Part shown: positions 47,702 to 48,259 of the stretch, in pieces
How positions within the stretch are numbered: the first letter of the stretch is position 1
Layout of the letters: each line of letters opens with the position of its first letter
Assembly (NCBI GenBank): GCA_044892525.1
Contig: CM097885.1
Location: forward strand, 13,766,001 to 13,830,000
Length of the DNA: 64,000 nucleotides
DNA from: Schmidtea polychroa
Taxonomy: Eukaryota
Direction of reading: 5' to 3'
Notes under the pieces: generated by a model
The model's input: only the letters and a program-made list of their open reading frames with translations
The model's database searches: none
What the model was told of the DNA's origin: nothing
Position numbers and translations under genes: made by a program

Positions 47702-48004
47702 ATGTCTAAATTTATTGAAAACGTTCTAAATGGACTAGTCACAGCGAATATAGTCGACAGCCTCAATTTCCTGGTCAATCGGACCGAACAAATTATTGAA
47801 GGCAACCATATCGACTACCAGAGCATGCTTGATATGGATTGTCTTGAATCAAAGAAGAATTATTTTAACAATATATTTCACTGTCTCTGCGATGAAGACA
47901 TGAAATGGACAAGAATTATTGTAGGGTTCACCTACATGAAGATAATCATTGCGAAAAGCCAACATGACTCAGAACATTATCATCAATGGTCTTTAGAAGT
48001 AAAT
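47702..48004 (+). CDS. Bcl-2-like protein (BH1-like motif), running into a (TTA)n tract
   Basis: YFNNIFHCLCDEDMKWTRIIVGFTY resembles the BH1 consensus FxxVxxxLFxDGxNWGRIVAxFxF; helical protein. Confidence 0.55.
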
Positions 48005-48152
48005 TTATTATTATTATTATTATTATTATTATTATTATTATTATTATTATTATTATTATTATTATTATTATTATTATTATTATTATTATTATTATTATTA
48101 TTATTATTATTATTATTATTATTATTATTATTATTATTATTATTATTATTAT
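48005..48152. repeat. (TTA)n microsatellite
   Basis: Direct reading. Confidence 0.98.
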
Positions 48153-48259
48153 ATATTATTATTAATATTACTTATTATTATAATTATTATTCAGTAGCGA
48201 CATACAATAAATTTTGGTTTACCAAAAAAAGAAGTCTGTTCTAAAAATTAGAGTCGTGT

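Follow-up and report, generated by a model that had tools for sequence, protein, structure and literature searches.

An open reading frame (ORF) of 180 amino acids runs without internal stops from an ATG at 47702 to a TAA ending at 48244 on the plus strand of a 64,000 nt stretch of Schmidtea polychroa DNA (contig CM097885.1 of assembly GCA_044892525.1, positions 13,766,001–13,830,000; hereafter the window, to which all coordinates refer). An initial annotation, made from the letters alone, had described it as a divergent Bcl-2-like ORF with a non-canonical Bcl-2 homology 1 (BH1) motif, KWTR for NWGR, a poly-leucine stretch read through a (TTA)n repeat, and a donor-like GTAAAT just before this repeat; all of these were verified in the sequence. 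KWTR occupies residues 68–71, within FNNIFHCLCDEDMKWTRIIVGFTY (residues 55–78; 47864–47935), and the claimed BH1 spacing is genuine, as CLxDEDMKWTRII aligns without gaps with SLFESGINWGRVV of Bak. The GTAAAT hexamer (47999–48004) lies in phase 0 directly after residue E99, and Leu102–150 are encoded by 49 perfect TTA codons (48005–48151). A stop codon one codon ahead of the lysine preceding the ATG makes this a stand-alone ORF. Because a shuffled 64 kb window contains on average 0.5 frames of at least 99 codons opening with ATG (30 shuffles), and because the reading frame is preserved in two protein relatives, P0002 (97% identity) and P0003 (82% identity), we consider the ORF more than a product of chance. 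Both relatives are translations, called without splicing, from contigs of 516 and 738 bp.

The Bcl-2-like ORF has a divergent partner of 166 amino acids (47092–47592, minus strand), from which it is separated by a spacer of 109 bp (47593–47701). The partner is open in all three versions (81–82% identity in the two relatives) and shows a hydrophobic N-terminus, a CxC motif, a predicted coiled coil, small residues and a hydrophobic C-terminal end; family and profile searches matched it to no family. Its layout, with no cytoplasmic tail, resembles by pattern that of a glycosylphosphatidylinositol-anchored surface protein. The spacer contains CCAATCAGA at 47635 and TATAAATA at 47665, which we take to be a CCAAT-box-like word and a TATA word; the latter and the start codon are retained in diverged contigs (loose ends at 47649 and 47701).

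This gene pair is repeated, in many diverged versions. The fragment 47060–48010 (951 bp, comprising both ORFs) was matched by 4515 contigs from run X1, covering 30 of 30 bins, and by 76 contigs from run X8; in both cases the number of contigs is not a copy number, nor does summed contig depth give one, and we restrict our claim to the existence of many diverged versions. The X1 contigs were distributed among identity classes of at least 99% (908), 95–99% (1410), 90–95% (1631) and less than 90% (566), with 2197 contigs below 95%. Among the 40 variants listed, out of 123 rows, 32 fell inside the two ORFs; 11 were synonymous against an expectation of 19% (p = 0.03) and none introduced a stop. Just three of these ORF variants are in the Bcl-2-like ORF, for which they are thus weak evidence of constraint.

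Comparisons with known proteins gave three weak, concordant indications of a relationship with Bcl-2. The sole Pfam match of the window protein is PF00452 (E = 0.0049, 17.8 bits), with residues 29–89 on positions 6–69 of the 100 in the profile, and P0003 matches it more strongly (E = 0.0008). The top clusters in the ESM Atlas (0.93, 0.91 and 0.91) are of 93–143 amino acids, with PF00452 in 12–46% of their members; the first two (0.93 and 0.91) have 209 and 203 of 256 features in common with the query, all ten best family matches fall in one family or clan, and BAX-like and adenovirus E1B-19K clusters come next (0.88–0.86). A three-sequence profile compared with PDB (to E = 10) retrieved 26 rows, of which 22 are Bak (20), A1 or Bax, placing DMKWTRII on GINWGRVV; for P0003, eight of the nine rows are of the Bak/A1/Bax type. 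These tests, all below significance cut-offs, suggest that residues 29–89 are likely Bcl-2-like and, judging on sequence alone, kinship to Bcl-2 is highly probable. The BH1 position (DMKWTRII, residues 66–73) retains the W and R of NWGR, with N and G replaced. Threonine at the position of the glycine is common to the three versions and is therefore a family trait; C63 is not, being F in P0003 and in 19 X1 contigs (three quarters of the local depth). At the BH3 position, as placed by the Pfam match, the sequence is LVNRTEQI (residues 24–31), and neither LVNRTE nor LINRTE, the two forms among the three versions, conforms to the BH3 motif LxxxGD. The window copy itself does not qualify for the Bcl-2 family, with a degenerate BH3 and with BH2 and the membrane tail absent. 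Structure models were poor (predicted local distance difference test, pLDDT, 41 and 51), and the better one contains five helices (residues 2–14, 17–34, 39–43, 48–61 and 68–89) in the Bcl-2 order. The initial annotation had staked its Bcl-2-like assignment on the presence of a Bcl-2 fold in profile or structure searches: the profiles are weakly positive and agree with each other, and three fold searches with the pLDDT 51 model returned no significant Bcl-2 match.

The three protein versions agree through E99 and then diverge, continuing as VNL(L)49 in the window, as VNLFLFIIIIIFR in P0002 and as GIY in P0003. Eight X1 contigs depart from the window after 48002 and continue GATTTC, giving GTAAGA, then DNA rich in T, and a stop five codons later, and the tail of P0002 implies a short ATT run finishing in a possible TTTAG. 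The hexamer GTAAAT, found 83 times when both strands of the window are counted, is uninformative by itself; at 47999 it carries weight because the other copies diverge there. Similarity that stops at a GT and is followed by free-running tails looks like read-through into an intron and therefore favours a first exon, which would comprise the 99 codons of 47702–47998, with GTAAAT as the likely 5′ splice site. From this comparison of versions, splicing of the gene family at 47999 appears reasonably likely. A search of longer proteins for a full-length form found none among 510 candidates. Looking for other copies, as the initial annotation had proposed in order to recover BH2 and the membrane tail, thus provided relatives and repeated versions, and neither of these two parts.

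The copy in the window ends differently. We found no GW/GGW motif near the locus in any of the six frames (the window has three in all, at 2785, 17842 and 62438; this concerns the window copy only), none of 12 candidate acceptors in 48000–50480 opens a BH2-like frame, and no C-terminal membrane tail of the Bcl-2 type is present in this copy, whose hydrophobic tail derives from the microsatellite and the inverted unit. The (TTA)n microsatellite (48005–48191, plus strand), with 49 perfect units and then degenerate ones, is the source of the poly-leucine and a likely rearrangement junction. It is followed by a 65-bp unit (48194–48258, minus strand) that is a 91% inverted copy of 40959–41024, some 7 kb upstream, the similarity continuing into TAA/TTA tracts; in the left partner of this inverted pair (40959–41140, plus strand), the 65-bp unit is joined to (TAA)n. 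Since residues 102–180 are read from the TTA tract and the 65-bp unit (the latter supplying residues 165–180), the apparent tail is not from Bcl-2 and the copy was likely cut by a rearrangement. The left TAA tract contains a Ty3-type long terminal repeat (LTR) element (41140–46464, plus strand) with an integrase tail and LTRs identical in 1072 of 1083 columns. Disregarding this insertion, a 1.4-kb gene pair is flanked on each side by [65 bp + (TAA)n], the two being inverted relative to each other, and no target duplication was found around these units. Most simply, the intron's ATT run and the opposite TAA tract would have recombined or been linked by a template switch, which would have copied the 65 bp backwards and lost the remaining gene sequence; insertion of the LTR element would have followed the rearrangement, because this element is younger by LTR identity. 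A rearrangement at the TTA tract likely removed the second exon of the window copy, which is probably dead. The alternative left by the initial annotation, truncated or spliced, would then be resolved as probably both, the family looking spliced at 47999 and this copy looking cut at that intron.

As to what carries the pair, the Ty3-type element was ruled out, the Bcl-2-like ORF lying outside its LTRs. Unlike the BCL2 motif of Burro elements, which is part of a gag-pol polyprotein, the ORF stands alone and outside LTRs. The segment may be a remnant of a Maverick/Polinton. We favour this as the likeliest carrier because of the compact divergent genes, their many versions, the presence of Bcl2 genes in adintoviruses, and a Polinton remnant in the window. 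Adintoviruses and animal Mavericks carry Bcl2 accessory genes (Starrett et al., 2021; PMC8502044, in excerpt), and Mavericks are recognized by terminal inverted repeats, AG/AGT ends and a 6-bp target duplication (PMC8097293, in excerpt). The Polinton-like remnant (1052–8853) contains a type B polymerase of 1146 amino acids (PF03175, E = 3e-5) and small ORFs; a 212-bp piece at 8642–8853 has 33-bp inverted arms and starts with AGTAGT and ends with ACTACT, the Maverick end motif.

Together, these results lead us to propose, with a probability of about 0.5, that the 99 codons form exon 1 of a Bcl-2-like gene, which occurs with a divergent partner in many diverged versions as cargo of the Maverick/Polinton type, and that the window copy lost exon 2 and is dead. 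Several observations weigh against this proposal. The PF00452 scores (17.8, 18.0 and 20.4 bits) are below the gathering cut-off of 31.4, the ESM Atlas recognition value is 2110, under the mark of 2300, and the best PDB row of the three-sequence profile has E = 0.14. Using phmmer, the window protein matched no PDB chain and, among 1.84 billion representatives, found P0003 alone; its 99 amino acids also match an unrelated PHROG phage primase (E = 0.002) and inositol-phosphate synthase (E = 0.005). The E-G-I-Y of P0003 is incompatible with a phase-0 GT after E99, no RNA junction was observed for the splice predicted at 47999, the break lies upstream of the GGW intron boundary that is conserved in Bcl-2 genes (PMC8998228, in excerpt), and intact vertebrate Mavericks are intronless (PMC8097293, in excerpt). 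Finally, 46600–50500 contains no polymerase, integrase, ATPase or capsid genes, the nearest type B polymerase being 40 kb off, and neither AGTAGT/ACTACT ends nor a target duplication bound the segment. The suggestion in the initial annotation of a captured or viral gene fits the high repetition and virus-like layout, and lacks an adjoining capsid, integrase, polymerase or Maverick end.

Intact copies would produce a spliced protein, soluble or tail-anchored, folding as a Bcl-2 helical bundle, in which the kept BH1 arginine would bind host pro-death proteins (Bak/Bax or BH3-only) via their BH3 helices, with the change of G to T altering binding selectivity. Mitochondrial killing would thereby be blocked and the cell would survive during replication of the element, with the AP-1-type sites described below timing expression to wounding or stress. 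The degenerate BH3 makes a protective or decoy role more likely than that of a Bak-like killer. In a more elaborate form, which we regard as rather improbable, the pair would be a two-gene survival cassette on a high-copy virus-like element in an animal that regenerates, with a 109-bp bidirectional promoter and a dense AP-1 enhancer, such that wounding turned on hundreds of anti-death genes, yielding a spliced Bcl-2-like protein, in which threonine occupies the BH3 and BH1 glycine positions, and a lipid-anchored surface coiled-coil protein, in parallel with a mutualism of the Burro1 inhibitor of apoptosis (IAP).

The versions found could instead encode, unspliced, a natural core-only Bcl-2-like mini-protein of about 104 amino acids, acting as a dimer or decoy, whose stop was lost to the repeat in the window copy. 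P0003 has precisely 104 amino acids and the X1 variant would close at that length; the sizes of the Atlas neighbours (93–143 amino acids) and the 510 candidates without a full-length form agree with this, as does an iridovirus Bcl-2 with BH1 and tail only (PMC11209288). It is nevertheless unlikely: the ends and stop positions vary among versions that before this point, through E99, are 82–97% identical, a pattern expected from read-through into an intron, P0002 and P0003 derive from short contigs called without splicing, and about one fifth of the Pfam domain would be absent, including half of the central hairpin of the structure. Also of low probability is that the Bcl-2-like pair belongs to another carrier, either a Burro-like LTR element or a Pack-type DNA transposon bounded by the 65-bp units, or to an amplified host family. 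Burro-2 to -4 hold a BCL2-like motif (PMC6431247, in excerpt), but within a polyprotein, whereas here the ORF has its own ATG and promoter words; the segment does lie between inverted units with CACG/CGTG ends, although these are without target duplication; and while an intron is more usual in a host-derived gene, a divergent spacer of 109 bp is in our judgement compact for host genes. An intron would also speak against recent retro-transposition.

We consider it improbable that this is a genuine repeated gene unrelated to Bcl-2, with a likeness to BH1 arisen by chance in an all-helical protein. Such an origin would account for the sub-threshold scores, the equally weak unrelated matches, the degenerate BH3 and BH1, and the fold searches, but the latter rested on a pLDDT 51 model whose predicted helix boundaries fit the Bcl-2 order. 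Moreover, in P0003 the primase match disappears and that to inositol-phosphate synthase falls to E = 0.09, while PF00452 strengthens, and a probable distant copy has SLFERSMNWSCV at the BH1 position. A functional 180-residue read-through product with the poly-leucine as a new membrane anchor is hardly credible: the frame is open to 48244 and there are basic residues at its end, but any TTA tract is open in that frame, 49 leucines are twice a membrane span, the last 16 residues come from the unrelated inverted unit, and both relatives lack the tail.

Departures from the canonical BH1 motif are already in the literature, as are Bcl-2 genes borne by elements. The Bcl2 genes of adintoviruses, compared by description and not by sequence, are like the present one in being short divergent Bcl-2-like ORFs that sit, in an animal genome, within a repeated gene block of compact, virus-like layout; here, by contrast with their excerpted description, there are no adjoining core gene or terminal repeat, and there are a likely intron and a signal-peptide/coiled-coil partner. 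With the giant LTR elements Burro-2, -3 and -4 of planarians (PMC6431247, in excerpt), and with Burro1, which has an IAP region (cited at second hand in PMC13465017, in excerpt), it has in common an anti-death module on a high-copy element of an AT-rich flatworm-like genome, whereas the Burro domain is within a polyprotein of 4.9–5.1 kaa (thousand amino acids) and here we find a stand-alone ORF with its own start, promoter words and a probable intron. The best matches among cellular proteins, Bak and Bcl-2-related protein A1 (PDB 6odh and 2vof), extend over BH1 and the preceding helix and share the W and R of NWGR; the present family differs in N to K/Q and G to T in BH1, in RTE for xGD in BH3, in the absence of BH2 and tail from the window copy, and in a break point upstream of the conserved GGW intron. 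NWGR is altered with the arginine kept also in orf virus ORFV125 (SPGR; PMC9027176, in excerpt) and, without glycine, in Trichoplax Bcl-2L4 (SWRR; PMC8998228, in excerpt), but those proteins are full-length, and threonine at the glycine position is particular to the present family among these, as far as the excerpts go. The window ORF is thus likely a dead fragment from a family, not listed before, of Bcl-2-like genes borne by elements. Were intact copies expressed, the genome would contain a third element-borne anti-death gene family, in which it could be tested whether Polinton cargo has an effect on the survival of host cells, as the IAP region of Burro1 does. The incomplete window copy is of value as a pointer to this family and as an example of how TAA/TTA tracts break genes; these tracts can also create false poly-leucine "membrane tails" in annotation.

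Another copy of the Bcl-2-like gene, distant and broken, is probably present at 24330–24760 (plus strand), in pieces in three frames and with stops. Three collinear pieces match residues 1–16, 20–57 and 64–76 of P0003, with 60.8 summed bits versus 45.1 for the best other place (409 tile-strand entries), and the layout CCAAT-TATAAATA-ATG is as at 47593–47701. DNA similarity was not above controls in this region, its individual pieces matched no family, and no obvious break is seen at the donor position. AP-1-type sites occur nearby, at 23804 and 23851, as does an 18-mer in common with 46917–46934.

What remains of the segment towards the left TAA tract (46610–47091) includes a second CCAAT-like word, at 46808, and, at 46849–46868, two AP-1-type sites forming a perfect palindrome of 20 bp. 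Downstream of the Bcl-2-like ORF, a repeat region (48259–48902) consists of TGA(G/C)TCA sites, presumably of the AP-1 type, interleaved with TTTGTTTAAA repeats; there are 11 such sites in 48259–48910 (650 bp), against 0.17 per kb elsewhere. Having this motif in common, the cluster and the palindrome may belong to the same element. This repeat region has the appearance of an enhancer or origin of an element. Further on, 49500–50100 contains tandem 59-bp and TTTTGGGAAA-rich repeats, and GTAATCTACATTTTACCA occurs at 36289 and 49518.

The window as a whole has a GC content of 20–40% in 2-kb bins, many TAA/TTA tracts, and Ty3, hAT, piggyBac and Polinton-type remains; planarian genomes exceed 70% AT and are rich in such repeats (PMC11410931, in excerpt), and planarian Polintons are targets of PIWI-interacting RNAs (PMC8532177, in excerpt). 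In the Ty3-type element at 41140–46464, both LTRs are followed by the 17-mer AAAAACATACCCATTTC, and the order left LTR, TAA tract plus 17-mer, integrase tail indicates an internal rearrangement; it also contains two ORFs with no assigned family (43675–44415 and 44473–45135), one with a C-terminal membrane span. A second Ty3 element (50476–58092) has its right LTR interrupted by a piggyBac-type transposase remnant (55624–57304, minus strand). Other genes are an intronless leucine-rich-repeat membrane protein gene (13878–15182, plus strand), an apparently intact hAT-type transposase (17441–19279, plus strand) and a decayed spliced gene for methylthioadenosine phosphorylase (MTAP; 40263–40930, plus strand), with stops and a short intron (TIGR01694, E = 1e-10 and 8e-10).
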